Assembly: GCA_964416445.1 (NCBI GenBank) | Contig: CAYQEE010000005.1 | Span: 52,060-116,059 of the forward strand | DNA length: 64,000 nt | DNA from: an uncultured Gammaproteobacteria bacterium | Lineage (GTDB): Bacteria; Patescibacteriota; Microgenomatia; Levybacterales; UBA12049 | Reading direction: 5' to 3' | The notes under the pieces: generated by a model | What the model was told of the DNA's origin: nothing | The model's input: only the letters and a program-made list of their open reading frames with translations | Databases searched by the model: none | Position numbers and translations under genes: made by a program | In this document: in pieces, positions 39,968-54,796 of the stretch | How the letters are laid out: each line of letters starts with the position of its first letter | Numbering within the stretch: the first letter of the stretch is position 1

Positions 39968-40531
39968 ATGAAAATTTACACGAAAACAGGTGATAAAGGG
40001 CAAACATCTCTTTTTGATGGAACAAGAGTTCCAAAAGATAACATACGAGTTGAAACCTATGGCACAATCGATGAGTTGAATAGTTCGATTGGAGTAGCCC
40101 TTGCACAATTACCAAAGTTAGCAACGCTCAATAAAATGAGAATAGTACTTAAAAATATTCAGCATGATCTTTTCGAAATTGGTGCAGTATTAGCAAATCC
40201 TCAGGAAGAACCATCTCCTCACATAAAGCAAGCGCTCTTAAAACATATTAGTAGTTTTGAAAACTTCATTGATGAGATGACCAATGAACTTCCTGAACTT
40301 ATGAATTTTATTCTTCCTGGGGGAAGTGTTTCTGGTGCAAATTTGCAACTTACTCGAGCAGTAAGTCGGCGAGTTGAACGAAACGTTATTGCTCTTTCAA
40401 AACAAGAGCGAGTTGAGCGAGAAATCATTATGTATTGTAACCGGCTATCAGATTTATTATTTACGATGAGTAGGTTTTGCAACTTTAAAGAAGGAAAGAA
40501 AGAAACCCCCTGGGAAAAACAGCTTGGGTAA
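39968..40531 (+). CDS. ATP:cob(I)alamin adenosyltransferase, PduO/MMAB type
   Basis: MKIYTKTGDKGQTSLFDGTRVPKDNIRVETYGTIDELNSSIG is the PduO-type N-terminal signature. Confidence 0.85.
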   Translation: MKIYTKTGDKGQTSLFDGTRVPKDNIRVETYGTIDELNSSIGVALAQLPKLATLNKMRIVLKNIQHDLFEIGAVLANPQEEPSPHIKQALLKHISSFENFIDEMTNELPELMNFILPGGSVSGANLQLTRAVSRRVERNVIALSKQERVEREIIMYCNRLSDLLFTMSRFCNFKEGKKETPWEKQLG

Positions 40532-40642
40532 AGCTATTTATCTCGTGTCACTACATAATAAAAGTTTTCTTATTCATTTGCAAAAGGAAAGAAAAGATGT
40601 ATGATAGGAAAACGAACTTTTCATTTATTTTTCTTCACTGCC

Positions 40643-43279
40643 ATGCAAGAATTTACTACTCCCATGATGAAGCAATACCAGGAGATAAAGAAGCAATATA
40701 AAGATTGTTTATTATTTTATCGAATGGGTGATTTTTATGAATTGTTTATGGATGATGCCTATATTGGTGCACAAGTGCTGAACATTACATTAACAGGGAG
40801 ACCAAAAGGCAAAGATGGACGAATACCAATGGCAGGAGTTCCTTATCACGCTGTTGATAGCTATCTTGCGAAGTTAGTTAAAGCAGGGTATAAAGTCGCA
40901 ATTTGCGAACAAGTCAGTCTTCCGAATAAGTATGGAATTATCGATCGCGAGGTAATTCGTATTGTTACACCAGGAACAGTTCTTGATGAAAAAGCTCTTG
41001 ATAAAAAGGATAATAACTACATAATCAGTCTCTTGGTTGAAAATGACATGATTGCAATCAGTACTGCTGATATTTCAACAGGATATTTCTCCTCAATACA
41101 AATGCATACTCGCAATGTTGAACAAACAATAAAAGATGAACTTTCTCGATTACATCCATCAGAATGTATCTTGTCTGAACAACTTTATAATACTCCTGAA
41201 ATTTTGCGATATTTAAAAACTGAAAATACAATGAGCATCTGTTGTTTTAAAGATTGGGAGAACTATGCAACATCAGCAAAGCAAATATTAAAGAAACATT
41301 TTGGTGTCTCAACATTAGCAAGTTTTGGTATTGAAGATAAGCCGCTACTGTTGCAAACAGCAGCTACTCTTTTGGGATATCTCCAAATGACTCAAAAAAC
41401 AACCGTTGGACATATTAAGAAAATTGTTGTTCATCATGCTGAAGATAGTATGATTTTAGATAAATCAACCGTGATTAATCTTGAATTATTTTCAACAATT
41501 CGTGAACATACGCTACAAGGAACATTACTTCATATTTTAGATCAAACAATCACCCCTATGGGTGGACGATTGTTAAAACAATGGATGAAAAAACCACTTA
41601 TTCATCGTGATGAAATTATCCAACGATATGAAGCTGTTGATGAATTTCTACAATACTCTCAAGAAAGATTTATGGTGCGAGAATCGTTGCAAGCAGTTAT
41701 TGATATTGAGCGCATCCTTTCTCGACTGTCTGTCAATATTGGAAATGCAAGAGATTTAATCAATTTAAAAACCTCATTGAAAACAATCTTACATGTGAAA
41801 AAGCTGCTACAAAATAGGGAAGCGAATCTGATTAAAAACGTAGCAGCAGGTATTTCGAATGACGTTACTACCGTTATTCAAGTTATTGAAAAAATGATTC
41901 TTGATGAACCCAAAATTGAATTGCGGGAAGGTGGACTGATGAAAAATGGTATTAACGCTGATCTGGATAAATTGAGGAAAATTGTTAAAGGGAGTAAAGA
42001 TTGGATAGTTAATTTAGAACGGAAAGAACGAGAAAGAACAGGTATTGCTTCTTTAAAAGTACGATTTAATCAAGTATTTGGTTTTTATATCGAAGTGAGT
42101 AAAGCAAATCTTCATAATATTCCTGAAAATTATATTCGCAAACAAACATTGGTAAACGGAGAACGATATATTACTCCAGAATTAAAAGAGCAAGAAGAGA
42201 TTATTTTAACTGCTGAAGAAAAAATTAATCAATTAGAATATGCACTATATCAAGACGTTTTACATTCCGTATTATCCTATACAGTTAGTTTACAAAAAGC
42301 AGCAGAAAGTATTGCTATTCTTGATTGTCTCTCAACGTTTTCAGAACTGGCAGAAAAAAATAGTTATATACGGCCAAATCTTGTATCAACAGGTGAGTTA
42401 ACGATTATTGGAGGACGACATCCTGTTGTTGAAAAGCTTTTGGAAGAGAATGAATTTGTTCCCAATGATGTAGCAGTTGACTCAATTAATCAACAATTGC
42501 TTCTTATTACTGGACCAAATATGGCAGGAAAATCGGTATTTATACGACAAGTTGCTTTAATAGTTTTTATGAGTCAGATCGGTTGTTTTGTTCCTGCAAA
42601 AGAAGCGACGATTAGTATTGCAGATCGTATTTTCGTTCGCAGTGGTGCATCCGATGTGATTACATCTGGTCTCTCTACATTTATGGTCGAAATGGTTGAA
42701 ACGGCGCATATCCTTCATCATGCGACAAAAAATAGTCTTATTATTATGGATGAAATTGGAAGAGGAACGAGTACGTATGATGGAATTAGTATTGCGTGGG
42801 CAGTCGCTGAGTATCTAGTTATAACAGAAGATATAGCTGCAAAAACTCTTTTTGCAACTCATTATCACGAACTACAATCGTTAGAAAAAGAATATCCAGG
42901 CAAGATAAAAAATTTTCATATGGCTGTTGCAGATGAGAAAGGGGAACCAATATTTCTCCATACCCTTGTTTCTGGAGGAGCATCTCACAGTTTTGGTGTC
43001 GCTGTTGCAAAACTTGCTGGTGTTCCTGATCCAGTAATCCAAAAAGCAACGGAAATATTACATATTCTTGAAAAAAGGCATATGGAAAATACCACAGAAC
43101 CTGAGACAATGGAACAATCGAGTACAGTCCATCTAGTGGACAAATTGTTACATAAAGAATTAGAAGATATTGATATTCATCAGACAACCCCTCTTGAAGC
43201 ATTAAATAAGTTAGCAGCGCTCAAAGAAAAACTCAAAGTATTTAAAGGAACACAAAGTAAATTTTTAGAGGTAGATTAA
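40643..43279 (+). CDS. mutS: DNA mismatch repair protein MutS
   Basis: TPMMKQYQEIKKQY..LFYRMGDFYELF (mismatch-binding domain). Walker A GPNMAGKS. Full MutS length. The start was taken at MQEF rather than the upstream track Met. Confidence 0.9.
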   Translation: MQEFTTPMMKQYQEIKKQYKDCLLFYRMGDFYELFMDDAYIGAQVLNITLTGRPKGKDGRIPMAGVPYHAVDSYLAKLVKAGYKVAICEQVSLPNKYGIIDREVIRIVTPGTVLDEKALDKKDNNYIISLLVENDMIAISTADISTGYFSSIQMHTRNVEQTIKDELSRLHPSECILSEQLYNTPEILRYLKTENTMSICCFKDWENYATSAKQILKKHFGVSTLASFGIEDKPLLLQTAATLLGYLQMTQKTTVGHIKKIVVHHAEDSMILDKSTVINLELFSTIREHTLQGTLLHILDQTITPMGGRLLKQWMKKPLIHRDEIIQRYEAVDEFLQYSQERFMVRESLQAVIDIERILSRLSVNIGNARDLINLKTSLKTILHVKKLLQNREANLIKNVAAGISNDVTTVIQVIEKMILDEPKIELREGGLMKNGINADLDKLRKIVKGSKDWIVNLERKERERTGIASLKVRFNQVFGFYIEVSKANLHNIPENYIRKQTLVNGERYITPELKEQEEIILTAEEKINQLEYALYQDVLHSVLSYTVSLQKAAESIAILDCLSTFSELAEKNSYIRPNLVSTGELTIIGGRHPVVEKLLEENEFVPNDVAVDSINQQLLLITGPNMAGKSVFIRQVALIVFMSQIGCFVPAKEATISIADRIFVRSGASDVITSGLSTFMVEMVETAHILHHATKNSLIIMDEIGRGTSTYDGISIAWAVAEYLVITEDIAAKTLFATHYHELQSLEKEYPGKIKNFHMAVADEKGEPIFLHTLVSGGASHSFGVAVAKLAGVPDPVIQKATEILHILEKRHMENTTEPETMEQSSTVHLVDKLLHKELEDIDIHQTTPLEALNKLAALKEKLKVFKGTQSKFLEVD

Positions 43280-43284
43280 TTTGT

Positions 43285-43737
43285 TTGTTTCTTGCTATTC
43301 AGGTAAATATTTTTTACAATTTTGATATGGTAGATCCACTCCAACCGAATACATCTTCCTTACAACAACCGACAGAACCTACCCCACCTGTTGCTCCACC
43401 AGCGTCTCATCCAAATCTTATCGTATTAATCATCTTTGCTATTATTCTTTTCGTTTTTTGTGGTGTAGGGTACATTTTATTACAAACACGCAAACCTTTT
43501 CCCCAAGCTGCTCAAACAGTTAATTCGCAATCTTCACCAACTCAGCCAATAATTGTTACACCCACTCCAGAGATTGTAGATACCGCACCTGGATTGCCAG
43601 CAAAGCAGAAGGCACAAGTTCAAATTCATCATTCTGACAGTACGTTTAGTACCTATCTTGTACCATTAACTAGTGTCTCCGCATATATTCACACATTACC
43701 CAAAGGTGATTCTGTTGTCAAAGTTGTAAACCCGTAA
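43285..43737 (+). CDS. Hypothetical Pro-rich membrane protein
   Basis: Pro/Thr-rich N-terminus, one TM (LIVLIIFAIILFVFCGVGYILL), then a short C-terminal domain. Start uncertain. Confidence 0.35.
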   Translation: MFLAIQVNIFYNFDMVDPLQPNTSSLQQPTEPTPPVAPPASHPNLIVLIIFAIILFVFCGVGYILLQTRKPFPQAAQTVNSQSSPTQPIIVTPTPEIVDTAPGLPAKQKAQVQIHHSDSTFSTYLVPLTSVSAYIHTLPKGDSVVKVVNP

Positions 43738-43794
43738 CAGCTTCTTAATTTCGTTGCATTTTTTATTTCGTGTATATTATGATGGAGCATACGT

Positions 43795-45498
43795 ATGAAA
43801 AAAATTCATCAGCTGTCTTTACCAGTTATTGCAAAAATAGCAGCAGGGGAAGTTATTGAACGTCCTGCATATGCAGTTAAAGAGCTTATTGAAAATGCAA
43901 TAGATGCGCATGCTAATTATATTACGATTCAAATTGAAGAAGCTGGACTGAAAAAGATTGTTGTAACTGATAATGGGGAAGGGATGGAAAAGGAAGATAT
44001 TCAAGAATGTTTTAAACCTCATACGACAAGTAAACTGAGCTCAGAAGAAGATTTGTTAGCAATTTCTTCACTCGGGTTCCGAGGGGAAGCACTTGCGAGT
44101 ATTGCAGCGATAAGTACGTTAACAATTAAAAGTAAATCTCTCAACGCAGTTGCAGGGACAATGATAAGAATTCATAATGGGAAGGTTTTGGAGGTGTTAC
44201 CAGTTGGTATGCCATCAGGAACAAGTATCCGAATTGATAACTTATTTTCTTCAGTTCCTGGAAGAAAGAAATTTTTAAAAAGCATCCGAACTGAATTTCG
44301 ACATATTGTTGATGTCGTAATGCATTATACTCTTGCTTACCCCACTATTCGATTTTTTCTCACGCATGATAAACGAATTATTTTAGATGCTCCCCCAAAT
44401 CAATCGATAGGAGAACGCATATCCTTAATACTCGGCAAACAAATATTTAATCAACTGATACCATTTTCTTATTCTGAAGAAAATATTACTCTTTCTGGTT
44501 TTATCTCACATCCACAACTGACGACGCAATCAACGCAAAAACAATATCTTTTTGTGAATAAACGGAGCGTCGTTGATCGACATATTAGTTCAATAATTAA
44601 AGAAGTGTATGGGAATCGTCTTGCTGCGACAACTTATCCTATCTATATCATTTTTTTGTCGATTCCTTTTGAGATGGTTGATGTCAATGTGCATCCTCGA
44701 AAAGAATATGTATTATTTGTTAATAGTGGCGTTGTTTCAGAACATATTGTAACTGCAATGAATCGTGCGCTTAATACTGTTCATGCTATTTTTTCGGCAC
44801 AATATAAAAATAGTGAACTTGTTCTGGGAGATAGTTTCCGTTCGGGGAACACCACTTCTTTTGCGGGAAGAACATTGAAAGAAGTTACGTCTCCTTGGCA
44901 ATTAAAAAGAGAGCTTCTCGATAGTACGTTAATCATGCAACTTCATAATGTTTATCTTGTTGTATCTACAAAATATGGCATGCTTTTGGTTGATCAACAT
45001 GCTGCTCATGAACGAATCCTGTATGAACAATATCAAAGAGCTTTTATTAAACAAAAGCAAAGCAAAAAAATCTTTACGTATTTAGAACCTATCCAATTTG
45101 AGGTTTCTCTGTCAGATGCAGAACTTGTTCAGGAACATAGAGCTCTTTTTACTACACTAGGATTTAATCTTGAACATTTCCACGATACAACATTTCTCTT
45201 GCGGAGTGTACCTTATCTTTTTCAAGATAGAGATTGTACGCAATTACTATTAGATGTTATTGACACTATTCGACAGGAAAAATCCACTGATGATATTGAT
45301 AAACAAACAAAACGAATGATTGCGTATCTTGCTTGTCGGAGTGCAGTGAAAGCAGGAGATAAACTTACTAGGGATGAGTCAAAAAACCTGATTGAACAGT
45401 TGGAAAAAACAGAAAATAATGCGACTTGTCCCCATGGAAGACCGACAAGAATCGAAATGCGACTTGAAGAACTACATAAAATTTTTAAGAGAAAATAG
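43795..45498 (+). CDS. mutL: DNA mismatch repair protein MutL
   Basis: IAAGEVIERPAYAVKELIENAIDA (GHKL ATPase). The C-terminal endonuclease region includes ACR..GDKL and CPHGRP. Confidence 0.9.
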   Translation: MKKIHQLSLPVIAKIAAGEVIERPAYAVKELIENAIDAHANYITIQIEEAGLKKIVVTDNGEGMEKEDIQECFKPHTTSKLSSEEDLLAISSLGFRGEALASIAAISTLTIKSKSLNAVAGTMIRIHNGKVLEVLPVGMPSGTSIRIDNLFSSVPGRKKFLKSIRTEFRHIVDVVMHYTLAYPTIRFFLTHDKRIILDAPPNQSIGERISLILGKQIFNQLIPFSYSEENITLSGFISHPQLTTQSTQKQYLFVNKRSVVDRHISSIIKEVYGNRLAATTYPIYIIFLSIPFEMVDVNVHPRKEYVLFVNSGVVSEHIVTAMNRALNTVHAIFSAQYKNSELVLGDSFRSGNTTSFAGRTLKEVTSPWQLKRELLDSTLIMQLHNVYLVVSTKYGMLLVDQHAAHERILYEQYQRAFIKQKQSKKIFTYLEPIQFEVSLSDAELVQEHRALFTTLGFNLEHFHDTTFLLRSVPYLFQDRDCTQLLLDVIDTIRQEKSTDDIDKQTKRMIAYLACRSAVKAGDKLTRDESKNLIEQLEKTENNATCPHGRPTRIEMRLEELHKIFKRK

Positions 45499-45534: not shown

Positions 45535-45711
45535 TTGTTCTCTTTGCAAAAATACGTTATAATTTTTTTATCAGAATTCCGAAGTCTGTGAAACTCAGAC
45601 GCTGTACCGCAACCGTTATAGTCGGGTCGCAGATTTTGGTGGGTATCACACGATCCTCGAGTTAAGGATGCGTCAAGAAAGGAACCTTCTCGATTAGGAG
45701 AAGGTTTTTTT
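45535..45711 (+). promoter_or_regulatory. Promoter plus ~140-nt structured leader ending in an intrinsic terminator (candidate attenuator or riboswitch)
   Basis: TTGTTC (45535-40), a 17-nt spacer, TATAAT (45558-63). The transcript should start near 45570. The terminator is CCTTCTC-gattag-GAGAAGG (45685-45704) followed by TTTTTTT (45705-11). The downstream ATG (45722) lies 11 nt after the T-run, with no room for another promoter. Confidence 0.55.
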
Positions 45712-45721
45712 GTGGAAAATT

Positions 45722-47617
45722 ATGTTTAATGAATCACCCAGGAGACAACAAACAGCAACACTTACTCGAAATGCCCAGATGATTGGTCTTTATCTTAATC
45801 TTTATAGAGTTCCTCTCAACAGGCCAGGTATAGCTCTTCCCAGATCACAAGAGGCAAGGCAGGATTTAATAGATGGTGGATTTACACCCGAACAGCAACA
45901 AATATTACAAAGACAACGATTACAATTTCGCGAAAACTATTTGACGATCGATGGCTCTCATGATCAATTGCCCCTACCATCTCATTCGCCGTTATTCACT
46001 GATGGACAATGGCAGCATTATGAGAAAATGCGAGAACAATATAGGTATGGATTATATGATACGGTACAAACTGCTTCTCCGACAGACACCTCGCAATTTA
46101 CCCAAGAACAATTAGAAAAGTTAGTAGAGCTACGAAATCAAATACGAAGAAGTACTCGTAATGAATTTGCGGGTGATATTTCACAAATTAAACAGTTACG
46201 AAAACAATGTGAAGCTGCAGGTATTACCTTTATTAAAAAAAATGAAGATGGAACAAATCAAAAAATAGCGTATGATCCTATCTTAGATGTCTTTAATTTA
46301 TTTAAAATACAGGCAGAAAATCCCAGTGCATTGAAAGATTTTCGTCGGGAAATCATCAAAAATTCAATTACAAATTTATTAGAACGGTATCGTTCAGATA
46401 GAAGTGTGCATCGATTTCAATTAAAAGAGGGAAAATTATTTTCAGAATATTTTCAAAACGAACCTTTTACAAAAATTATCGCTCGAGGAATTAGCCATCT
46501 TCAAGAAGAAGGATCATTAACACAAATACGCGAGAGAAGAGAATTAGAAGGATTTGAATGGAAGGAAAGATATCTTCAAGCCGCACCGATTGGAGCGATG
46601 GTGCTGTTTCTTTCTCCACCATACTTGGAGCGATATCCCGAAAAATTTGTTGATATCTCGATAAAAAAACAAGATCATCTCACCGGAGAAACATATATTG
46701 AAGAAATTCGGTTTAAATATGATAGCTTAACAGCTCATGATTATTGGAATATTGCCACAAGGCTTGATCCACGGTATTTTGATGGATTTATACCACCTTC
46801 TCTTGATGCAAATCCTAATGAGGTCATGACGCTTGATGCATGGTGCGTTGGAAAAGGAATTCCCATTGTGGGAGAATCTCCAGATGCAGTATTTAAATCA
46901 TTAATTGGATCAATTGATCCAGAAAAAGAAGCAAAGATAGATTTTATTTTAAAATGTTCAGAACATCCAATATTTGATTTCTATCTTCCAAGTTTGTTAG
47001 AATCACGATTTACAGCGAAGCAAGATTGGATACGATTAGGCAAAGCTTTTCAATCAATATTAACTTTCTCTCAAAATGCAAGAGATTTATATGATACTTA
47101 TGGTAATAATCATACAGTCTTGGATAGAATGGATTTTGAGACTGCAAAAAAACATGTCTATGCATATATTCAGAGTCAAAAGCATAAATCAGTAAGTAAT
47201 CTTGCTCTTCCGAATACAGTGGACATTTCTTATGAAAGGTATCTTCAACAGAAATTACCTCCAACACAGTTTCAAATGGATACGTTAAGCAAATTACAAG
47301 CAGAGGAGCTTGCTATTGGATGTGGAAGATCTGGGAATGTCCTTATTAATGAAGGTACTAATACTGTTTCTCAAGAAATGGAATCTCGAGCAATGGGTAG
47401 CCTTAATAGATTAAATAAATATAACACTTCGAAAGTGGTAAACAAAGAAAAGTCAGGAAGTAAAGAATCTGAATTATTCCAGTGTCCAGAATGTAATCAA
47501 TATTTTGTTCCTCCTGTTGGGGAATCATGTCCACCAAATAAATTGTCTATCGAAGGTTTCCTTGGATGTGGATATAGTAAAAAAGAAGCTATCGCTCAAG
47601 GAGCGGCTGTTTGTTAA
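45722..47617 (+). CDS. Large hypothetical protein (632 aa from ATG 45722) with a C-terminal Cys-cluster (zinc-ribbon-like)
   Basis: Long ORF (the track uses a TTG at 45710). The C-terminus carries FQCPECNQYF...SCPPNKLSIEGFLGCGYS. No recognisable enzymatic motif. Confidence 0.55.
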   Translation: MFNESPRRQQTATLTRNAQMIGLYLNLYRVPLNRPGIALPRSQEARQDLIDGGFTPEQQQILQRQRLQFRENYLTIDGSHDQLPLPSHSPLFTDGQWQHYEKMREQYRYGLYDTVQTASPTDTSQFTQEQLEKLVELRNQIRRSTRNEFAGDISQIKQLRKQCEAAGITFIKKNEDGTNQKIAYDPILDVFNLFKIQAENPSALKDFRREIIKNSITNLLERYRSDRSVHRFQLKEGKLFSEYFQNEPFTKIIARGISHLQEEGSLTQIRERRELEGFEWKERYLQAAPIGAMVLFLSPPYLERYPEKFVDISIKKQDHLTGETYIEEIRFKYDSLTAHDYWNIATRLDPRYFDGFIPPSLDANPNEVMTLDAWCVGKGIPIVGESPDAVFKSLIGSIDPEKEAKIDFILKCSEHPIFDFYLPSLLESRFTAKQDWIRLGKAFQSILTFSQNARDLYDTYGNNHTVLDRMDFETAKKHVYAYIQSQKHKSVSNLALPNTVDISYERYLQQKLPPTQFQMDTLSKLQAEELAIGCGRSGNVLINEGTNTVSQEMESRAMGSLNRLNKYNTSKVVNKEKSGSKESELFQCPECNQYFVPPVGESCPPNKLSIEGFLGCGYSKKEAIAQGAAVC

Positions 47618-47626
47618 AATATACAT

Positions 47627-47791
47627 ATGGAAACAAAAATTGCTTGTCATGATTGTTTTCAAATTATATGTAAGCAGTGTGGCTGGATTGCCACACCGGA
47701 AGATGTTATAATGATTCAACAAGGAAAGGTGACTGCTTGTCCTCTCTGTGGATGGAAACCACAACCATCACAAGAAAAGCGTACATTATAA
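47627..47791 (+). CDS. 54-aa triple-CxxC zinc-ribbon mini-protein (not in ORF track)
   Basis: METKIACHDCFQIICKQCGWIATPEDVIMIQQGKVTACPLCGWKPQPSQEKRTL. It has CHDC, CKQC and CPLC motifs. It starts 10 nt after the upstream stop. Confidence 0.45.
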   Translation: METKIACHDCFQIICKQCGWIATPEDVIMIQQGKVTACPLCGWKPQPSQEKRTL

Positions 47792-47840
47792 ACATTTTGT
47801 AAGGATTATTTCATTGTCATAGATTCTGCAAGATGGTATC

Positions 47841-48431
47841 ATGAATCATATGGGTACAACAACAAACCAGCAAGATCAATCGAATCAAACATCGCAAGGG
47901 AATACTATTGTTGAATTTCCTGATTTCAATACTGTTGCTAAAACACCAACGACACATCCCCTTGGACCAATGCCAGTAGTAAAAACTCCAACTCCAACTC
48001 CAACTCCAACTCCAACTCCAACTCCAACTCCAACTCCAACTAGTCAACCTACGAGCAGTTCAATTCAGAAGGAACTCGAACCAATGCCATCATTGATAGC
48101 AAAACCTGACATAATACACGAAACTGAACATGTTGTTGAGCTTGTTCCAGAAGTGAAAGCAGCAGGAGTGGAAGCTGTTTCAACTATTCCACAGTTAACA
48201 TTAGAAGAAAAAAAGATTGGTGTAGAATTAGCAAAGGAAGCAGCATTAGAGGAAAAGAAATTAGAGCCTGATTTAAAAGCACCAATATCAAAAATGGAGG
48301 CAGAAAAAATAACGAAAGGACAATTACTCTTTAAGGATACTTCAAATCCCATGTTGTGGCTAGCGATGCTTCTTTTGAGACAGATTCAAATTTTAACTAG
48401 ACAAAAACAGTCTAAAGAGAAAAAAATATGA
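47841..48431 (+). CDS. (TP)n-repeat protein with a charged helical middle and hydrophobic C-terminal segment
   Basis: 196 aa. [21 protein letters not shown] is encoded by a perfect (ACTCCA)n array. Then an E/K-rich region. Then a C-terminal LWLAMLLLRQIQIL. Its stop overlaps the next start (ATATGA). Confidence 0.55.
   Translation: MNHMGTTTNQQDQSNQTSQGNTIVEFPDFNTVAKTPTTHPLGPMPVVKTPTPTPTPTPTPTPTPTPTSQPTSSSIQKELEPMPSLIAKPDIIHETEHVVELVPEVKAAGVEAVSTIPQLTLEEKKIGVELAKEAALEEKKLEPDLKAPISKMEAEKITKGQLLFKDTSNPMLWLAMLLLRQIQILTRQKQSKEKKI
47985..48035 (+). repeat. Hexanucleotide microsatellite (ACTCCA)x8.5 encoding (TP)n
   Basis: A perfect tandem array read directly from the sequence. In-frame repeat length changes would alter the linker length without a frameshift. 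Confidence 0.9.
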
Positions 48432-50806
48432 TACCTGATCAATTATTTACCCCACAGGGGATGATAACCCTTTTTACTATTTTATCCGTCATTATTCTTA
48501 GTACTGTAGGAATTGGATTTTTGCTAATTTTTGGAGGATATTTACTCTTCTTGTATTATAAATATCGAGATCGAGAAAAAATCTCATTAGAGTCGACGCT
48601 CCTGTTAGTTGCGTTACCTCGAGATAATGAAATTAAAATAGATGCCGCAGAGCAAATGTTTGCTGGATTTGCTTCTATTCGTAAAAGCGGCAGGTTTGCA
48701 TTTCTTAATCCGCAACCACATATTTCCTTTGAAATCGTAGGGACACCTGGTGACATTCGGTTCTATGTTCATACGCCAAATAAATTACGTGATTTAGTAG
48801 AAAAGCAAATTAACGGAACGTATCCTGAAGCTGATATCCGTGTAGTTACTGCCGATGATCCGAAACAAAAAAATATCATTGGCAATGAATATAACTTCTT
48901 TAATGAAAACGGTAAAGTCGCATTTGCTCCTCTTAAATTAAAAGGTGCTTCGTATTCTCCGATTCGAATCTTTAAAGATTTGCCGGTAGATGGGTTATCC
49001 CTTATCACTTCAGTACTTGCAAAAATGGGTGAGGGAGAAGGCGCTGCCATCCAGATTCTTGTAAGTCCAGCAGATCCGAAATGGAAGAAATTAGGGCGAA
49101 AGTTTATTGCACGAACAAAAAAAGCAGAGTCAAATCCCGAAACAGCAAAATATGCAACAGATCCAAAAGAATTAGAGGGAATTGAAAATAAAATTAGTAA
49201 ACCAGGATTTAATGTTACCATTCGTGTTGTTGTTTGCTCTCCTAATAAAGAAATGGCTGATGCTCATTTAAGCAACATCCTGAGTGCTTATGGACAATTT
49301 AATGCAGCAAACTCATTTAAAAAAATGAAACCATTGTTAAAGAATTTGCTTGTCAAAGATTTTGTCTATCGTTTCTGGCCAATGCGCGGACAAACGTCTA
49401 TTATGACCAGTGAAGAGCTAGCAACAATTTTTCATTTCCCCAATAAAAGTATTACCACTCCTCAAATTTTTTGGTTAACTTCAAAGAGAGCACCTGCTCC
49501 TGCACAGATCTCAACTACTGGACTATATATTGGGAAAAGTATTTTTAGAGGTATTACAAAACCTGTTCATATTGGTCTGGATGATCGACGTCGGCATATG
49601 TATATTATCGGAAAAACAGGTACTGGAAAATCCGAGTTTTTGAAAGATATGATCCTGCAGGATATCCAAAATGGGGAGGGAGTTTGTGTAATTGATCCTC
49701 ACGGTGATTTAGTTGAAGGAATTCTTCCTCGAGTTCCTGCAAAGCGCGCTGAAGATGTTATTATTTTTGACCCTTCTGATACTTCTCGTCCAATGGGGTT
49801 AAATATTATGGAGGCTGATACTGAAGAACAACGACATTATGTCGTATCGTCCATTATTGGGCTATTTTATAAGTTATATGATCCAAACAATACTGGTATT
49901 GTTGGTCCTCGTTTAGAGCATGGTATTCGAAATGCAATGTTAACATGTATGTGTGAACCTGGTTCTACTTTTATTGAGGTCCAACGCGCATTGACAGATT
50001 CTGCTTTTGTACAAGAGATTCTCCCGAAGGTCACGGATCCAATTATCCGTAGATATTGGACAGATCAAATAGCGCAAACAAGCGACTTCCACAAATCGGA
50101 GGTACTTGACTATATTGTCTCTAAATTCGGTCGTTTTGTTACCAATAAGTTGATGCGTAATATTATTGGTCAATCGAAAAGTGCTTTTCAGTTCAGAGAG
50201 ATTATGGATCAACAAAAAATACTATTAGTTAATTTATCAAAAGGAAAAGTTGGAGAGGAAAACTCTAACTTTCTTGGATTGATTCTCGTTCCAAAGATTC
50301 TTGTTGCTGCAATGAGTAGACAAGATATTCCGCAAGATCAACGTAAAGACTTTTTCCTCTATGTTGATGAATTTCAGAATTTTGCAACACCTGATTTTGC
50401 CGTTATTCTTTCAGAAGCTCGTAAATATCGATTAAATCTTATTGTTGCAAATCAGTTTACTGGACAGATGCAGGAAGAAGTTAAAAATGCTGTTTTTGGT
50501 AACGTTGGATCCATTGTCTCCTTCCGTGTCGGTGTTCAGGATGCAAACTATTTACAACACGAGTTTCAACCCACCTTTAATGAGGGAGATTTAATTAACA
50601 TAGATAGATATAACGCGTATATGCGAACTCTTGTCAATGGAGAACCAGTGAGTCCTTTCTCTGTCGATATGACGCGAGATATGACAAAAGAAAAAGCATT
50701 GGAAAATCCTCGAATCGCAGAATTAATCAAAGAGCTCTCTCGATTGAAATACGCGAAAGACGTTAAACAAGTTGAGGTTGAAATTTCCACTCGTGCAAAA
50801 CTTTAA
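48428..50806 (+). CDS. Membrane-anchored FtsK/HerA/TraG-superfamily P-loop ATPase, most similar in layout to type IV coupling proteins (VirD4/TraG/TrwB-like)
   Basis: A 33-aa N-terminal hydrophobic hairpin, then a ~330-aa domain. Walker A IIGKTGTGKSEFL is followed by VCVIDPHGDL and FDPSD..GLNIME. Walker B LYVDEFQNF lies about 250 aa later. That long spacing fits T4CP with an all-alpha insertion, not the FtsK motor. Start coupled to the upstream gene. Confidence 0.6.
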   Translation: MIPDQLFTPQGMITLFTILSVIILSTVGIGFLLIFGGYLLFLYYKYRDREKISLESTLLLVALPRDNEIKIDAAEQMFAGFASIRKSGRFAFLNPQPHISFEIVGTPGDIRFYVHTPNKLRDLVEKQINGTYPEADIRVVTADDPKQKNIIGNEYNFFNENGKVAFAPLKLKGASYSPIRIFKDLPVDGLSLITSVLAKMGEGEGAAIQILVSPADPKWKKLGRKFIARTKKAESNPETAKYATDPKELEGIENKISKPGFNVTIRVVVCSPNKEMADAHLSNILSAYGQFNAANSFKKMKPLLKNLLVKDFVYRFWPMRGQTSIMTSEELATIFHFPNKSITTPQIFWLTSKRAPAPAQISTTGLYIGKSIFRGITKPVHIGLDDRRRHMYIIGKTGTGKSEFLKDMILQDIQNGEGVCVIDPHGDLVEGILPRVPAKRAEDVIIFDPSDTSRPMGLNIMEADTEEQRHYVVSSIIGLFYKLYDPNNTGIVGPRLEHGIRNAMLTCMCEPGSTFIEVQRALTDSAFVQEILPKVTDPIIRRYWTDQIAQTSDFHKSEVLDYIVSKFGRFVTNKLMRNIIGQSKSAFQFREIMDQQKILLVNLSKGKVGEENSNFLGLILVPKILVAAMSRQDIPQDQRKDFFLYVDEFQNFATPDFAVILSEARKYRLNLIVANQFTGQMQEEVKNAVFGNVGSIVSFRVGVQDANYLQHEFQPTFNEGDLINIDRYNAYMRTLVNGEPVSPFSVDMTRDMTKEKALENPRIAELIKELSRLKYAKDVKQVEVEISTRAKL

Positions 50807-50849
50807 CTTTTCTTTCGTATTCGCTTTTGCTACAATGCAGATTACTTGA

Positions 50850-50922
50850 GGGCCAGTAGTTCAGCGGCTAGAACATCTATCTTATACATAGAATGTCGAA
50901 GGTTCGAGTCCTCCCTGGCCCA
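50850..50922 (+). tRNA. tRNA-Ile with anticodon UAU (reads AUA)
   Basis: Acceptor GGGCCAG/CTGGCCC-A. D-stem gttc/gaac. Anticodon stem tctat/ataga with loop cTTATAc (U33, A37). T-loop TTCGAGT. 73 nt. A TACAAT -10-like box lies upstream. Confidence 0.8.
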
Positions 50923-50988
50923 CATGTCAAATTATTTTATTGCAATTATTGAGAAATATATCTGCTCATTTTGTTATACTAATTACCA

Positions 50989-51360
50989 ATGATCACTGAT
51001 ATTTCCTCTGTTATTATCTGGTCAGAAGATTATAAAAAACTTGCAGCATGGTATAAAGAGAAGCTTGCATTACCAATGGGAATGGAATTAACTCATCCGC
51101 AAGATACAGCAATACAGTTTCAAGTTGGAAAAACACGATTATGGATTGGGCAACATTCACAAGTAAAAGGGAAAAACAGAGATAGTCATCGTATTATGAT
51201 TAATTTTGTTGTTGATTCAGTAAGTAAAACGTACCAGTCTTTATCCCAAAAAGGTGTTGTATTCGTAGCGACACCGTTTAAAGCACCAACGCTTGAGAAG
51301 TATTTTGCAACTTTTTATGATTTAGATAAGAATATTTTGCAGATTGTCGGGGGAGAATAG
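50989..51360 (+). CDS. Glyoxalase/bleomycin-resistance (VOC) family protein
   Basis: 123 aa. The N-terminal VIIWSEDYKKLAAWYKEKL and overall size fit VOC-fold proteins. Weak motif evidence. Confidence 0.45.
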   Translation: MITDISSVIIWSEDYKKLAAWYKEKLALPMGMELTHPQDTAIQFQVGKTRLWIGQHSQVKGKNRDSHRIMINFVVDSVSKTYQSLSQKGVVFVATPFKAPTLEKYFATFYDLDKNILQIVGGE

Positions 51361-51574
51361 AAGAATGATCATGAATGAAGAAATGCACGATAAGAAAGGC
51401 TTACAACAAAATGCAAAATCTGTACGTTTCTATTCATGGCTTGAAATGATATCAATTGGTCTTGGAGTTTTAGGGATTGGTCTGCTTATTGCAATTCTTG
51501 GCTATGTGCTGGTAACATTCCGCACGAGTCCTTCGTCCTCAGTAACGCATCCTTCGCCAACTATACAGAGATAA
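51344..51574 (+). CDS. Small membrane protein
   Basis: 76-aa ORF with one TM (ISIGLGVLGIGLLIAILGYVLV). Confidence 0.3.
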   Translation: MSGENRRMIMNEEMHDKKGLQQNAKSVRFYSWLEMISIGLGVLGIGLLIAILGYVLVTFRTSPSSSVTHPSPTIQR

Positions 51575-51621
51575 TCATATTATCCGTTTGTTACTGCACT
51601 AAAATTCGCTATAATAACCAA

Positions 51622-52308
51622 ATGAGTAAATTAGTGTCTGAACGCTCGTATCGACATATCGATACAATCACAGGGCTTTTTGTTGCTGTTCTCCTTATTG
51701 CAAATATTATATCAAGTAAAATTATTCATATTGGTATTTTCCCCTTTACCGGAGGAATTGTTATTTTCCCACTGAGTTATATCTTTGGTGATATTCTTAC
51801 TGAAGTATATGGGTATAAAAGATCAAGAAAAGTAATTTGGCTTGGTTTTGCATGCAATATTCTTATGGCAATTGTTCTCATTATTGTCGGTGTGTTACCA
51901 TCTGCTCCTCAATGGCATGATCAAACTTCCTACGAAAGGATTCTTGGGCAAACTCCTCGAATTGTTCTCGCTTCTCTTCTTGGATATTTTGCAGGTGAAT
52001 TTAGTAATTCTTTTGTTTTGGCAAAAATGAAAATAATGACGAATGGAAAATGGCTATGGAGTAGAACGATAGGATCAACAATTATTGGAGAACTTCTTGA
52101 TACGATAATTTTTATTTGTGTTGCTTTCTGGGGAATACTTCCTCTAAGTTTGTTAGTGATGGTAATTGTGTCAAATTATATTGTAAAGACACTCATTGAA
52201 GTTATTCTTACTCCTATTACGTATGCAATTGTTTATTGGTTGAAGAAAATTGAACAAGAAGATTACTTTGATACAAATACAGATTTCAATCCTTTTCTTT
52301 TGAAATAA
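51622..52308 (+). CDS. yhhQ: Queuosine-precursor transporter, YhhQ/VUT family
   Basis: FPFTGGIVIFPLSYIFGDILTEVYGYKRSRKVIW is the hallmark of PF02592 (YhhQ/QueT-like preQ0/preQ1 salvage transporters). 6 TMs. Confidence 0.8.
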   Translation: MSKLVSERSYRHIDTITGLFVAVLLIANIISSKIIHIGIFPFTGGIVIFPLSYIFGDILTEVYGYKRSRKVIWLGFACNILMAIVLIIVGVLPSAPQWHDQTSYERILGQTPRIVLASLLGYFAGEFSNSFVLAKMKIMTNGKWLWSRTIGSTIIGELLDTIIFICVAFWGILPLSLLVMVIVSNYIVKTLIEVILTPITYAIVYWLKKIEQEDYFDTNTDFNPFLLK

Positions 52309-52717
52309 GGTAAGTGTTATGATTTTTATCCCAATGATATTTCGCATCTATGGCAATACCGCCACGAACATTAAAGTGAACAGTAACATCAACTGCTAAG
52401 GGTTTTACAAACGTTATAAAATCTTGTGCTATATCAATAGCGAGATGCTCATGAAAGACTCCTTCATTCCGATAGGTTTCTAAGTATAATTTGAATGATT
52501 TTGATTCAACAATGTAGCCGTCAGGAACATAAATGATATCTATTGTTGCATAATCTGGTTGTTTTGTCATAGGACAGAGGCACGTAAACTCTTTACAGAA
52601 AAGGGTAACGGTGAGGCTCCCAGGTGCATGGTTTGGAAATACCTCAAGTGTCCGTGAAGGAATTGCTGGCTTTCCTAATTTTTTTAATGTTTCTAAGTCC
52701 TTTTTTGTTGTTGGCAT
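52286..52717 (-). CDS. queF: NADPH-dependent 7-cyano-7-deazaguanine reductase (type I QueF)
   Basis: EFTCLCPMTKQPDYATIDIIYVPDGYIVESKSFKLYLETYRNEGVFHEH matches the QueF catalytic Cys and the E(S/L)K(S/A)hK(L/Y)(Y/F/W) motif. The start was taken at MPTTKK. Confidence 0.8.
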   Translation of the reverse strand: MPTTKKDLETLKKLGKPAIPSRTLEVFPNHAPGSLTVTLFCKEFTCLCPMTKQPDYATIDIIYVPDGYIVESKSFKLYLETYRNEGVFHEHLAIDIAQDFITFVKPLAVDVTVHFNVRGGIAIDAKYHWDKNHNTYLISKEKD

Positions 52718-52826
52718 TGTGGTATTATACCATAGGAATATGCATGTACTGGATTGCATACTAATGACTTGTCATTTCTTTACAATCCCAAAAAATTGAT
52801 TTATACTGCGATTCACAGAAGATAAT

Positions 52827-53549
52827 TTGCTAAGAATATCTATGGATAAACGAATTATACTTGGAATTGGGGCTCATCCTGATGATATTGATTTTACGGC
52901 AGCAGGTTCAATAGCAAAATGGGTGAAGGAAGGTGCAAAAGCATATTATCTTATTGCCACTGATGGAAGTAGAGGCTCTGAGGATCCTCATATGACTCAC
53001 GAAGCACTCATTTCTCTCCGCAGGAAAGAACAAGAAGACGCTGCAAAGATTATCGGAGTGAGCGATATCTTCTTTTTATCGCATACAGATACGCAGCTAG
53101 AAGCAAATGCGGTGCTACAAGAAGAAATCGTGCGGTATATTCGCAAACTAAAACCAACCACTGTCATAACAATGAATCCCACATTCTTTTTTAAAGCAGA
53201 TCGAGAACCTGGATTTATTAACCACACTGATCATCGTGCCATAGGTCTTGCAACAATGGATTCAGTATTTCCCTTAGCTCGTGATCGGTTAACTTTCCAT
53301 CACCATGAAAAAGAAGGACTTAAACCACATAAAGTAAAAGAATTACTTTTTATGAACTTAGATAAACCGGAATATGTTGTTGATATTACTCCAACCTTTG
53401 CTATAAAAATCGCTGCCTTAAAAGCGCATGCAAGCCAATTTCCTGATTTTGTTTTAGTAAAAAAAAGGATTGCGGAGCGTGCCCAATTTTATGGGAAAAC
53501 GAAAGGCTTTACTTATGGAGAAAATTTTACTCGTATTATCTTAGCTTGA
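52827..53549 (+). CDS. PIG-L/LmbE-family N-acetylglucosaminyl deacetylase
   Basis: ILGIGAHPDDIDFTAAGSIAKW..ATDGSRG..HTDHRAIG is the LmbE-like zinc-binding pattern (HPDDE…HxDH). Confidence 0.75.
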   Translation: MLRISMDKRIILGIGAHPDDIDFTAAGSIAKWVKEGAKAYYLIATDGSRGSEDPHMTHEALISLRRKEQEDAAKIIGVSDIFFLSHTDTQLEANAVLQEEIVRYIRKLKPTTVITMNPTFFFKADREPGFINHTDHRAIGLATMDSVFPLARDRLTFHHHEKEGLKPHKVKELLFMNLDKPEYVVDITPTFAIKIAALKAHASQFPDFVLVKKRIAERAQFYGKTKGFTYGENFTRIILA

Positions 53550-53551
53550 AC

Positions 53552-54412
53552 TTATAGTTCTGTAAGATGGGTTGTTTCTTTTCCTCGTTCTTTTACGTAT
53601 TCTAAGTATCGTTCTGTTGTAGAAAGTCGTTTATGGCCGACTACTTTAGAGAGTAAAATGAGAGATACCCCATGTTTTAAATGATGAGCAATAAAGGTAT
53701 GGCGAAGATCGTTTACTTTGGCATTTTTAATTTCTGCTAACCGGAAATAACGTTCTACTGCAGTTCGAATATTTCGAATAAGGAATGGTCTTCCTGATTT
53801 TGTGACAAAAACATGATCATCTTGTACTTGTGGACGAATTTTAAGATATCGTTCCAATGCTTCCTTTGCTGATGCATTGAGAGGGACGATTCTTTCTTCA
53901 TGTTTTTCCATTGGACGAATTCGAATTCCTTCAGGAAGAAGGTCGTCTAATCGAAGTTCAGCTAATTCTCCAATACGAATGCCTGTTTGAAGCAATAATT
54001 GAATAACGGCATACATACGGGCATCTTTGCGACTTGCATCTCGAAGTGCTCGATATTCTGTTGGAGTAAGGATTCTCGGTGCTCCTAGTTGATATTGTGG
54101 ATGAGAAATAAGTAACGATGGATCGTCGGTAACGAATTCATTTACCTTTAAGAAGCGATAGAAGGTACGAGTAGAGTTGATTTTTCGGGATATTGATTTT
54201 GGTGTATAACCATCTTTTGTCATTTTTGCTAAAAATGATTCGATATCATCTTTGGTGATATCATGGACATTTTCTTTTCGAAGTTCTTCAAGGAAATTGA
54301 TGAGTTGGGCAATATCTTTCCCGTATGCTACAATGGTTGCATTCGAGCGACTTTTTGTTTTTAAATAGTTTTTAAACTGCTCGTGGGCATCTCTGAGCTT
54401 AACTGTGTTCAT
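53552..54412 (-). CDS. Tyrosine recombinase (XerC/XerD-like or integrase)
   Basis: N-terminal SAM-like domain (YLKTKSRSNATIVAYGKDI). Catalytic residues R..HxxR..Y (GIRIGELAEL…LRHTFIAHHL…LGHKRLSTTERYLEY). 286 aa. Confidence 0.85.
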   Translation of the reverse strand: MNTVKLRDAHEQFKNYLKTKSRSNATIVAYGKDIAQLINFLEELRKENVHDITKDDIESFLAKMTKDGYTPKSISRKINSTRTFYRFLKVNEFVTDDPSLLISHPQYQLGAPRILTPTEYRALRDASRKDARMYAVIQLLLQTGIRIGELAELRLDDLLPEGIRIRPMEKHEERIVPLNASAKEALERYLKIRPQVQDDHVFVTKSGRPFLIRNIRTAVERYFRLAEIKNAKVNDLRHTFIAHHLKHGVSLILLSKVVGHKRLSTTERYLEYVKERGKETTHLTEL

Positions 54413-54454
54413 AAACTGTGATCCTATAATACCACAAATTGAGGGTAAGAGTCA

Positions 54455-54796
54455 ATGAAAAGAATTATTTTCGCATTTATCATCCTTTTTGCCTTAGCTT
54501 CTATTGTAAGCTCAGTAAGTTCAATCTACCAACTTCTCCATAAACGAGATCTCCTAATAGCTGCTCAGCAAGCCTTGGAGAGAGTACAGAAACAGAATGT
54601 TGGACTTAAAAATAGGCTCAAAATTGTGTCTGGACCAGGCTTTATTGAAGAAGAAGCTCGGAATAAGCTCTACTTTGTAAAACCTGGGGAAAGTACTGTA
54701 TATATCGCGAAAAACCTTGTTGTCCCGAAGATTGTGAAAGTACAAAAACCCCAAGAAAAAACCAATTGGCAGCAATGGATAGACCTCTTTTTATAG
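54455..54796 (+). CDS. Septum formation initiator family protein (FtsB/DivIC-like)
   Basis: N-terminal TM, a coiled-coil (QNVGLKNRLK), and the conserved motif EEEARNKLYFVKPGESTVYI. Confidence 0.65.
   Translation: MKRIIFAFIILFALASIVSSVSSIYQLLHKRDLLIAAQQALERVQKQNVGLKNRLKIVSGPGFIEEEARNKLYFVKPGESTVYIAKNLVVPKIVKVQKPQEKTNWQQWIDLFL

Follow-up and report, generated by a model that had tools for sequence, protein, structure and literature searches.

A class-II cobalamin riboswitch and an uncharacterised protein of the B12 regulon beside a conserved ATPase pair in a Microgenomates genome

In this study, a 64,000-nucleotide stretch of DNA (the window) was found to carry a leader that comparison assigns to the class-II cobalamin riboswitches, followed by the gene of a protein, X, that belongs to the B12 regulon. 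The region is probably best described as two units lying side by side, a riboswitch-X unit and a Y-ATPase unit. The first unit (45535-47617, perhaps reaching 47791) would place X under the control of the cobalamin riboswitch, and the second (47841-50806) would represent a pair, protein Y and the ATPase, that is conserved in Patescibacteria. The novel lead is X, which represents a family of B12-regulated, uncharacterised proteins. A preliminary description of this DNA had joined five elements into a single new ATPase module; all five, with their motifs, were present where it had placed them. The features considered here were as follows.

36642-40531, plus strand: context block of nrdR, nrdJ, a membrane-anchored DUF4430 protein and the pduO adenosyltransferase
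40601-45498: mutS-mutL, inserted in the window between the pduO block and riboswitch-X
45535-45563, plus strand: putative promoter (TTGTTC, 17-nt spacer, TATAAT), read from the sequence
45566-45640, plus strand: cobalamin riboswitch aptamer, class II (AdoCbl-II, RF01689), compact variant, by Rfam match
45653-45669, plus strand: conserved hairpin AUCCU-CGAGUUA-AGGAU, from alignments A2 and A3; covarying stem, conserved CGAG loop
45680-45711, plus strand: intrinsic terminator with T-run; hairpin 45683-45706, with a 14-bp stem in the minimum-energy fold
45710-47617, plus strand: X; the open reading frame 45722-47617 gives 631 aa from ATG, or 635 aa from TTG at 45710
47627-47791, plus strand: p54 (54 aa), an open reading frame with three CxxC pairs
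47841-48431, plus strand: Y, TP-repeat protein (196 aa), an open reading frame containing (TP)9
48428-50806, plus strand: ATPase (792 aa), an open reading frame; membrane-anchored, DUF8128, type IV coupling-protein-like (VirD4/TrwB/DotL)
50850-50923, plus strand: tRNA-Ile(UAU), a neighbour outside the system
53552-54412, minus strand: Xer-type recombinase

The riboswitch leader

The leader at 45566-45711 consisted of a class-II cobalamin riboswitch aptamer and then an intrinsic terminator. It scored 39.3 bits against Rfam RF01689 (E = 7.6e-6 over the whole window), the gathering score of which is 36.5 bits, and the copies of relatives scored 39-53.8 bits, several of them reaching the gathering score. 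A model (R1) built from an alignment (A3) of the window leader and 19 relatives (20 sequences) gave the window leader 70 bits and found a single copy in the window. The same model found 68 copies in 87 sources, counting the 20 sequences from which it was built. In A3, the helices P3, P4 and P5 were 100 % paired across the 20 sequences, with compensatory changes. Pairing in the leader reached 97.5 % of cells, the corresponding values being 75 % for shuffles and 35-48 % when the partners were slid; compensatory double changes occurred in 10 of the 14 leader pairs, and none of 500 shuffles reached the observed score. Moreover, P1 covariation was seen among the four closest leaders, and the aptamer core CUGUGCCGCAAC / AGUC was invariant and present in the window copy. 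The minimum-energy fold was rejected as the leader structure, as it gave the terminator only and missed the covariation-supported aptamer, and the comparative structure was used for this reason.

The structural prototype of class-II cobalamin riboswitches is the env8 hydroxocobalamin riboswitch. Like other members of this class (RF01689 AdoCbl-II, or 'AdoCbl variant'), the window copy has P3, P4 and P5 and a downstream hairpin that resembles the docking hairpin, and the copies found here precede genes of B12 uptake and salvage. Unlike RF01689, the copies of the window, L040, L034 and L017 show neither the inner GAGG/ACUC helix nor the GCCAC box in the Rfam alignment and carry GGUCGCAG instead; for the window copy, this alignment has deletions at the 5-bp inner helix and at the GCCAC box (the 3' B12-box strand). 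Most leaders of relatives carry GAG/CUC at the inner-helix position. A 3-bp CGA/UCG pairing is possible in the window leader, and it is invariant, hence without covariation signal. The hairpin at 45653-45669, the counterpart of the CCC-GAGCA-GGA hairpin in relatives, probably serves the expression platform as its loop-loop docking hairpin. By identity and structure, as judged from sequence comparison, the leader is a genuine class-II cobalamin riboswitch, for which ligand binding is predicted.

The riboswitch-like, regulated leader of the preliminary description was thus borne out, with a score above the Rfam gathering threshold and homologues with compensatory changes in dozens of related genomes. 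Its interpretation as a sign of a secretion or competence system was not: the leader is predicted to sense cobalamin and is therefore linked to the nrdJ/pduO island. The sigma70-like promoter proposed earlier retained a perfect -10 element (TATAAT, 45558-45563), but its -35 element (TTGTTC) is weak, matching at 3 of 6 positions, and the promoter scan did not list the putative promoter at 45535-45563. Its placement agrees with transcription beginning at the aptamer's 5' end. The strong intrinsic terminator that had been described as closing the leader was confirmed as a hairpin at 45683-45706 followed by a T-run, and it was conserved in L040, L034 and L017. In this respect the window riboswitch differs from those of most relatives, which end in a ribosome-binding-site hairpin. 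The 3' arm of the terminator (GGAGAAGG) also contains the likely ribosome-binding site of X. Binding of a corrinoid by the aptamer would allow the terminator at 45680-45711 to form, and the formed terminator would also hide this ribosome-binding site; because translation of X would be blocked in the bound state, we infer an OFF switch in which X is made only under B12 scarcity.

Protein X and the B12 regulon

In relatives, the nrdR-nrdJ-DUF4430-pduO block directly precedes the riboswitch and X. The nrdJ product matched TIGR02504 at 578 bits (cutoff 400), which identifies an adenosylcobalamin-dependent reductase; the adenosyltransferase of the island is of the PduO type, and NrdJ was the sole B12-dependent enzyme identified within the window. 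The first gene after the riboswitch was X2 in 19 of 66 copies, DUF4430 in 13, PduO in 12, X in 10, X3 in 3, X4 in 3 and another gene in 6. Thus, 25 of the 66 copies lie directly before DUF4430 or pduO, and 35 lie before X-type genes of the same island beside nrdJ. Furthermore, all evaluable X-family genes sit behind a riboswitch, either directly or in the order riboswitch-pduO-X. These data show that X belongs to the B12 regulon. Under B12 limitation, X would share this regulon with the DUF4430 and DUF6580 uptake proteins and PduO, and the regulon would supply adenosylcobalamin to NrdJ; DUF6580 was not found in the window itself.

The arrangement resembles the B12 regulons of corrinoid salvagers (btu-type uptake, PduO/CobA), in which uptake proteins and an adenosyltransferase serve a B12-dependent enzyme and are repressed through a riboswitch. 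Here, the uptake proteins are a DUF4430 binder and a DUF6580 membrane protein. Unlike those regulons, the present one includes large soluble proteins (X1/X4 and X2/X3) without known family or fold, many of them with a riboswitch of their own. The literature searched yielded nothing on a cobalamin riboswitch in Patescibacteria or on DUF6580. Patescibacteria are ultra-small, are thought to be host-dependent and cannot make most cofactors or nucleotides. The supply of their one B12-dependent ribonucleotide reductase is for this reason central to host dependence, and the locus reveals a compact Microgenomates B12 regulon of riboswitch, DUF4430 binder, DUF6580 membrane protein and PduO. To this regulon are added the large soluble proteins, which are predicted to be switched on under B12 shortage and are candidates for the missing steps of corrinoid handling.

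X has no hydrophobic segment. Its structure model was confident in the core, with pLDDT above 90 for residues 150-470, and the invariant residues of the family were mostly charged. The earlier statement that X lacks a recognisable fold held after structure prediction and fold search, which returned just weak PAS-like structural matches. No family match was obtained in Pfam, NCBIfam, PDB sequence or fold searches, including ribonucleotide reductase, kinase and nuclease families. Word-index searches, with the single sequence or with a 60-sequence alignment, retrieved X alone, and the family was found by exhaustive HMMER search only. The X profile matched PDB sequences solely at generic zinc ribbons of ribosomal proteins, and PADLOC and PHROGs gave no match for X or p54. 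As modelled, X is a soluble, presumably cytoplasmic protein of 631-635 aa that has a PAS-like core and a zinc ribbon at its C-terminus; its family is uncharacterised. A C-terminal CPEC...GCGY had prompted the idea of a divergent NrdD, which was rejected: no family match was found, the fold is not a barrel, and the combination typical of NrdD (glycyl-radical barrel, C-terminal zinc ribbon and RVxGY motif) was not seen in X.

Between the window and L022, X showed no BLAST similarity, while the ATPases were 83 % identical. A metabolic enzyme would not usually diverge to this extent. In profile-profile comparison, X1 was related to X4 (probability 97.6) and not to X2/X3. The best guess is a role for X in binding or processing scavenged corrinoid before this reaches PduO and NrdJ, with a PAS-like pocket the lining of which would consist of invariant Arg, Glu, Asp and Tyr residues.

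An alternative is that X provides a B12-independent bypass, for example a deoxynucleotide salvage enzyme, that is induced when NrdJ fails. In other bacteria, metE or nrdAB/nrdDG stand behind B12 riboswitches. The adjacency of nrdJ is in agreement with such a bypass, the invariant acidic and basic residues of X could make a catalytic site, and X has its own riboswitch even where pduO has one (L017, L023, L074 and L078). However, the searches described above gave no similarity to ribonucleotide reductase, kinase or nuclease families, X diverges far faster than expected of a housekeeping enzyme, and it is often co-operonic with pduO and transporter genes. It is also missing in close relatives that retain nrdJ. 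A bypass is thus considered quite improbable, and a role in corrinoid handling is preferred.

The 54-aa triple-CxxC peptide noted previously was confirmed as the open reading frame 47627-47791. It is a small zinc-ribbon protein with the motif CxxC-x6-CxxCxW...CPxCGWxP, and 9 of 80 loci have homologues, the position of which varies.

Protein Y and the ATPase

The stop codon of Y overlaps the ATPase start codon as ATGA, and in 72 of 80 loci (species) Y immediately precedes the ATPase. The coupling of the TP-repeat protein to the ATPase, as first described, is therefore well founded, and Y is a genuine coupled partner. Y has a disordered T/P/Q-rich N-terminus that includes the (TP)9 repeat, short conserved motifs and a C-terminal amphipathic helix; its one marginal PHROGs match, of unknown function, was to a low-complexity region. 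It may act as a disordered partner that is translationally coupled to the ATPase.

The ATPase carries GKTGTGKS at residues 395-402, IDPHGD, FDPSD and VDEFQNF at 646-652. These Walker A and B motifs, with the coupling-protein-like spacing of ~250 residues, were read directly in the translation, in accord with the preliminary description. A hydrophobic N-terminal anchor was likewise found, but in place of the hairpin proposed before it is one stretch (residues 6-45), modelled as a single long helix, which may cross the membrane once or twice. The precomputed Pfam annotation placed PF26449 (DUF8128) on this exact protein (P0002) and on all listed relatives. In the Pfam scan, TrwB_AAD_bind was above its cutoff, TraG-D_C was below (19.0 against 22), and T4SS-DNA_transf was represented by a faint precomputed match in relatives only. 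The ATPase therefore belongs to a family that combines DUF8128 with a type IV coupling-protein-like motor. With TrwB (R388), VirD4/Cag-beta and DotL it shares the N-terminal membrane anchor, the P-loop motor and an inserted helical domain, the last corresponding to residues 466-594 between Walker A and Walker B, which were modelled as helices only with moderate confidence (pLDDT 64). Its best PDB sequence matches were TrwB and DotL, both of which were also among the three best fold matches, and the fold scores of DndH-C and HerA almost equalled those of the coupling proteins. By analogy with TrwB, the ATPase is probably hexameric. Unlike type IV coupling proteins, it has an extra domain of ~300 residues (DUF8128) between anchor and motor, one hydrophobic segment in place of a clear two-helix anchor, and no relaxase, VirB4 or channel gene nearby. 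Neither VirB4, relaxase nor FtsK domains were detected among the scanned large open reading frames of the window, and no relaxase, VirB4 or channel genes were present in the annotated 20-kb neighbourhoods of relatives, so that the earlier remark on the lack of an adjacent relaxase or VirB4 was correct for both annotated and scanned window genes.

The homology search scored >7000 hits, with 531 genome-collection matches. The ATPase was 62-85 % identical in the listed relatives across Microgenomates. This conservation, the DUF8128 assignment and the orphan homologues already published (PMC12102498) contradict the lineage-specific novelty that had been claimed for it. Quinonero-Coronel et al. 2025 (PMC12102498) report 5,713 orphan VirD4-type homologues in 2,918 Patescibacteria genomes; virB4 is close to just 148 of these homologues, and Southlakia does not need its copy for epibiotic growth. 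The present ATPase resembles these proteins in being chromosomal, far from virB4 and encoded by a Patescibacteria genome. A coupled partner such as Y, or a recurrent site behind the nrdJ/B12 island, was not found described in the accessible text of that paper (PMC12102498). The widespread orphan coupling-type ATPase of these bacteria gains a conserved partner, Y, as a handle on its function. A phage origin, raised by a match to phrog_5156, was ruled out because no relatives of the ATPase were found in viral contigs.

The ATPase might instead stand in for FtsK, as a membrane-anchored DNA pump that serves segregation or dimer resolution with Xer and DivIC and not as a secretion coupling protein. 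Like FtsK/SpoIIIE, it belongs to the ASCE P-loop superfamily, is membrane-anchored and has a Xer recombinase gene downstream. Genes for xer and divIC follow it in the window (xer at ~2.7 kb, where it had been reported together with the tRNA-Ile(UAU) at 50850) as well as in L086-L089, and 31 of 80 loci have xer within reach. Conservation as high as that of this ATPase suggests housekeeping, and the scarcity of homologues near virB4 and the dispensable Southlakia copy, as reported in PMC12102498, point in the same direction. However, FtsK_SpoIIIE scored 17.9 against a Pfam cutoff of 24, no gamma domain was found, the fold score was lower, and both the long Walker A-B spacing and the inserted helical domain resemble those of TrwB, in agreement with the earlier opinion that the protein is not of the cell-division FtsK type. 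In addition, a separate ftsK is annotated in TM7x, and the synteny belongs to a backbone common to many unrelated genes. Replacement of FtsK therefore has a low probability, and the assignment to the coupling-protein-like motors is retained.

Relation between the two units

The shared gene order is GAPDH...nrdR-nrdJ-pduO-X-Y-ATPase-xer-divIC-mur, and the Y-ATPase pair adjoins the B12 island because Microgenomates have this order in common as a chromosomal backbone. The five elements do not co-occur throughout. X and p54 are absent from the close relatives L004 and L006, in which Y and the ATPase come immediately after pduO. The earlier reading of all five as a single new ATPase module is thus supported in part only. 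After rearrangement, X mostly remains with pduO and other B12 genes (L022, L005, L030, L032, L086 and the P0192-bearing contig); in the window, it stayed with Y and the ATPase and was split from pduO. Some loci have the order riboswitch-DUF4430-DUF6580-Y-ATPase without X. The second unit is probably driven by its own promoter at 47814-47842 and would be independent of the riboswitch.

The riboswitch, X, p54, Y and the ATPase could also form one conditionally expressed translocation device, in which X or the non-homologous X2/X3 are cargo or adaptors that Y and the ATPase, when B12 is limiting, pass to a secretion channel, for instance for the extraction of host corrinoids or deoxynucleotides. 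The four genes X, p54, Y and ATPase are co-directional and separated by 9, 49 and -4 nt, the last being the Y-ATPase overlap, and as no strong terminator separates them, transcription from the riboswitch promoter could read through to the ATPase. An X-type protein stands directly before Y in 39 of 68 loci; the median gap between Y and its upstream gene in co-directional loci is 21-28 nt, and the gaps from X2/X3 to Y are 4-24 nt. The layout of riboswitch, variable protein, Y and ATPase is therefore recurrent. Moreover, the proteins that occupy this slot are non-homologous, each having a separate riboswitch copy, and they evolve fast and lack a signal peptide, resembling secretion substrates. 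X2 and X3 share a conserved C-terminal segment (hhalign probability 98.7), which is strongly basic in the two sequences inspected. Against a common device stand L004 and L006, the loci without X, the retention of X with pduO in most rearrangements and the lack of VirB4 or channel genes nearby. The ribosome-binding-site hairpin of most relatives, furthermore, affects the first gene only, and unrelated genes are equally tightly packed in this genome, as with pduO-mutS and mutS-136 aa-mutL in the same window. A joint device is thus unlikely. More doubtful still is the wider proposal that the interchangeable, fast-evolving X1/X4 and X2/X3 are clients of Y and the ATPase in a vitamin-gated translocation that exports effectors or imports material; if true, the client proteins and the Y-ATPase pair would be used when cobalamin is short and NrdJ stalls, so as to gain corrinoids or deoxynucleotides from the host. 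The description as two adjacent units is preferred. The tRNA gene that follows the ATPase in the window also follows it in L017 and L086.

The leader RNA

In this study, the positions assigned in a preliminary description to four plus-strand reading frames, a tRNA and a recombinase were all recovered. The underlying observation was confirmed, and its interpretation, in which leader and four genes form one novel five-part module, was borne out in part. The four genes are as follows:

45722-47617, plus strand: X, the large protein behind the leader, 631 aa counted from ATG
47627-47791, plus strand: p54, the 54-aa zinc-ribbon protein
47841-48431, plus strand: Y, the TP-repeat protein
48428-50806, plus strand: the coupling-type ATPase

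An alternative start of X, TTG at 45710, lies nine bases past GGAG and gives a product of 635 aa. A 14-bp hairpin and a T-run close the leader; the promoter proposed for it has a perfect -10 element, but its -35 element is poor and it is absent from the promoter scan list.

The Rfam search returned a single riboswitch match across the 64 kb, RF01689 (AdoCbl-II) at 45569-45635, which at 39.3 bits exceeds the gathering score of 36.5. Taken alone, this match was borderline because the inner 5-bp helix and the GCCAC box were deleted in the alignment, and the leaders of relatives were therefore examined. With the ATPase as anchor, 80 species-level loci were collected from Microgenomates (Levybacteria, Gottesmanbacteria and others). 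Near-full-length homologues of the window leader in three of them (L040, L034, L017) carried compensatory changes in helices P1, P3 and P5 and the same terminator. Searches with a profile and, after it, with a covariance model trained on 20 of the copies brought the number to 68 across 87 sources; this total counts the 20 training copies and includes one in the window. Pairing was seen in 97.5 % of cells of the alignment of these 20, compared with 75 % after shuffling and 35-48 % when partners were slid, and 10 of 14 base pairs showed double changes. Moreover, several relatives' copies reached the Rfam gathering score independently. The leader RNA was thus shown to belong to the class-II cobalamin riboswitches, a known class to which it is a new addition.

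In the majority of relatives, the leader ends in a CCC-GAGCA-GGAGG hairpin containing the ribosome-binding site. The window-type leader retains this hairpin (45653-45669) and adds the terminator, whose 3' arm likely holds the ribosome-binding site of X. Corrinoid binding would favour terminator formation, so that X would be made under B12 shortage. The window subtype (45566-45711; GGUCGCAG plus terminator) agrees with L040, L034 and L017 and is unlike the copy preceding X in the close relative L022 (L022:4215-4330), which suggests that leaders were exchanged between genes or lineages.

The B12 island and protein X

Upstream of the leader lies the following block, seen in both source contig and window:

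36642-40531: nrdR, nrdJ, a membrane-anchored DUF4430 protein and a PduO-type adenosyltransferase

The window reductase matched TIGR02504, the adenosylcobalamin-dependent equivalog, at 578 bits (cutoff 400). About 50 of the 80 relatives share the order nrdR, nrdJ, (DUF4430, DUF6580), pduO, riboswitch, variable protein, Y and ATPase. The first gene 3' of 66 riboswitch copies encoded X2 (19), DUF4430 (13), pduO (12), X (10), X3 (3), X4 (3) or another protein (6), where X4 is a family related to X and X2 and X3 are non-homologous proteins. DUF6580 is an integral membrane family and DUF4430 the transcobalamin-like B12-binding domain, which a paper on vertebrate B12 binders reportedly mentions. The DUF4430, DUF6580 and PduO genes are a standard uptake-and-adenosylation regulon supplying NrdJ.

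Between pduO and the riboswitch, the window carries an insertion of mutS, a small membrane protein (136 aa, Pro-rich, single-pass) and mutL (40601-45498), found in the window genome only; in relatives, the riboswitch with X, or Y, directly follows pduO. Four loci (L017, L023, L074, L078) have two riboswitch copies per gene string (e.g. L074:6732-6832 and 7782-7883), the first 5' of DUF4430-DUF6580 or pduO and the second directly 5' of an X-type gene. Minus-strand copies (L005:4050-4165, L022:8955-9070, L088:8254-8360) precede a DUF4430-like gene and then a protein of 451-646 aa, which in L088 has weak squalene-cyclase/prenyltransferase-like matches; the two genes may together represent a transcobalamin-like B12 binder whose two domains have been separated.

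Word-based searches with X returned nothing beyond X itself; an exhaustive search gave a family of 125 cluster representatives (259-648 aa, ~30-35 % identity) with a conserved core at residues 150-460, and none of 60 members matched Pfam. The near-invariant residues are mostly charged (E221, R222, R255, R270, E271, E274, D311, R330, D372), and conservation extends to a GCG motif and to a four-cysteine ribbon at the C-terminus. Four distant homologues lie in the context pduO-X or DUF4430-DUF6580-pduO-X, and cobalamin-riboswitch matches occurred in the gap 5' of X in all three distant homologues whose DNA was examined. Furthermore, with the covariance model, every evaluable X or X4 gene stood behind a riboswitch, directly or as riboswitch-pduO-X. 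X was thereby shown to belong to the riboswitch-controlled B12 island. It may bind a small anionic ligand in a putative PAS-like pocket and act between uptake and PduO/NrdJ.

X evolves much more quickly than the genes around it: in comparisons with a common set of relatives, identity was 54-80 % for NrdJ, 69-83 % for the ATPase and 69-87 % for Xer, whereas X reached at most ~30 % over one third of its length or was undetectable. In Gottesmanbacteria, its slot is occupied by the unrelated X2 and X3 proteins (500-760 aa), which have in common a conserved segment at the C-terminus (basic in two inspected sequences) and lack profile similarity to X. X and the analogous X2 and X3 are a useful new lead as uncharacterised B12-regulated Microgenomates proteins, and Y, the partner of an orphan coupling-type ATPase, is part of it.

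Y, the ATPase and the extent of the unit

In 72 of 80 loci, a Y profile placed a Y-type partner whose end lies no more than a few bases from where the ATPase begins; in the window, the Y stop and the ATPase ATG overlap as ATGA. The N-terminus of Y is of low complexity and is locally expanded into the (TP)9 run; short motifs are conserved, and an amphipathic helix lies at the C-terminus. Y was thus shown to be a conserved partner of the ATPase, and may serve as its adaptor.

The ATPase translation contains Walker A, IDPHGD, FDPSD and Walker B and one hydrophobic segment (residues 6-45); X, p54 and Y were searched for such a segment and have none. Precomputed Pfam domains were DUF8128, TrwB_AAD_bind and DUF87. 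In a local scan, TrwB_AAD_bind and DUF87 were above cutoffs and FtsK_SpoIIIE and TraG-D_C below, and the best PDB sequence matches were TrwB and DotL, aligned significantly over the Walker A region and non-significantly over the Walker B stretch. These results uphold its classification as a coupling-type and not an FtsK-type protein. By analogy with TrwB, the protein may form a membrane-anchored hexamer. Its identity was 70-85 % among the 120 matches listed of more than 7000 and 62-83 % in the 80 genome loci kept out of 531 matches; a search of the viral contig collection gave no close relatives. The ATPase also matched phrog_5156 (unknown function; residues 252-787, E 6e-84) and the PADLOC model mad8 (E 5e-18).

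The novelty first claimed for the ATPase was not upheld, and its family is already known. A survey of 2,918 Patescibacteria genomes counted 5,713 VirD4-type homologues, of which no more than 148 were near virB4; its authors remark that the Southlakia copy is dispensable for epibiotic growth and may have been exapted (Quinonero-Coronel et al. 2025, PMC12102498).

The riboswitch, X, Y and ATPase might be coupled as a single module. All genes face the same way at close spacing, an X-type protein lies immediately 5' of Y in 39 of 68 loci (median gap 5' of Y 21-28 nt in co-directional loci), and X of the window moved together with Y and the ATPase. However, X and p54 are dispensable, both being missing in the close relatives L004 and L006; X-less loci of the form riboswitch-DUF4430-DUF6580-Y-ATPase exist; and rearranged blocks keep X or X2 by pduO and the riboswitch (L022, L005, L030, L032, L086). 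Moreover, the order GAPDH...nrdR-nrdJ-pduO-X-Y-ATPase-xer-divIC-mur extends over a long collinear backbone and mixes unrelated functions, spacing in the window genome is equally tight between genes with no relation to each other (pduO and mutS, for example), and immediately 5' of Y lies a site resembling a promoter, with an extended -10 (47814-47842). On balance we lean towards two units, with the single module still a contender.

Other genes in the window and relatives

In L086, a Diphthami_syn_2-type ATP-binding protein and an aldo-keto reductase (L086:2897-4653) lie between X and Y-ATPase and share the gene string behind the riboswitch. Window 50989-54796, 3' of the tRNA, encodes a glyoxalase-fold protein, a Vut_1 vitamin/queuosine-precursor-type transporter, QueF, a PIG-L deacetylase, Xer and DivIC; the last two likewise lie downstream of the ATPase in L086-L089. 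The tmRNA gene (17331-17782, minus strand, 100.8 bits) has an ~80-nt insertion relative to the Rfam model right past the tag-coding region. The minus strand also encodes a SpoIID-domain protein (23993-25789), two tandem class A penicillin-binding proteins with transglycosylase and transpeptidase (28391-32803) and a ferric-reductase-like membrane flavoprotein with Ferric_reduct, FAD and NAD binding domains (57637-58938), which seemed surprising in a genome so reduced. Six reading frames of 498-730 aa had no Pfam match at E <= 1e-5:

31-2208
2236-3924, minus strand
6023-8215
19539-21035
21039-22868, minus strand
55465-57573, minus strand

Finally, a related Patescibacteria contig carries a group I intron (L017:17610-17811, minus strand, 72.9 bits).
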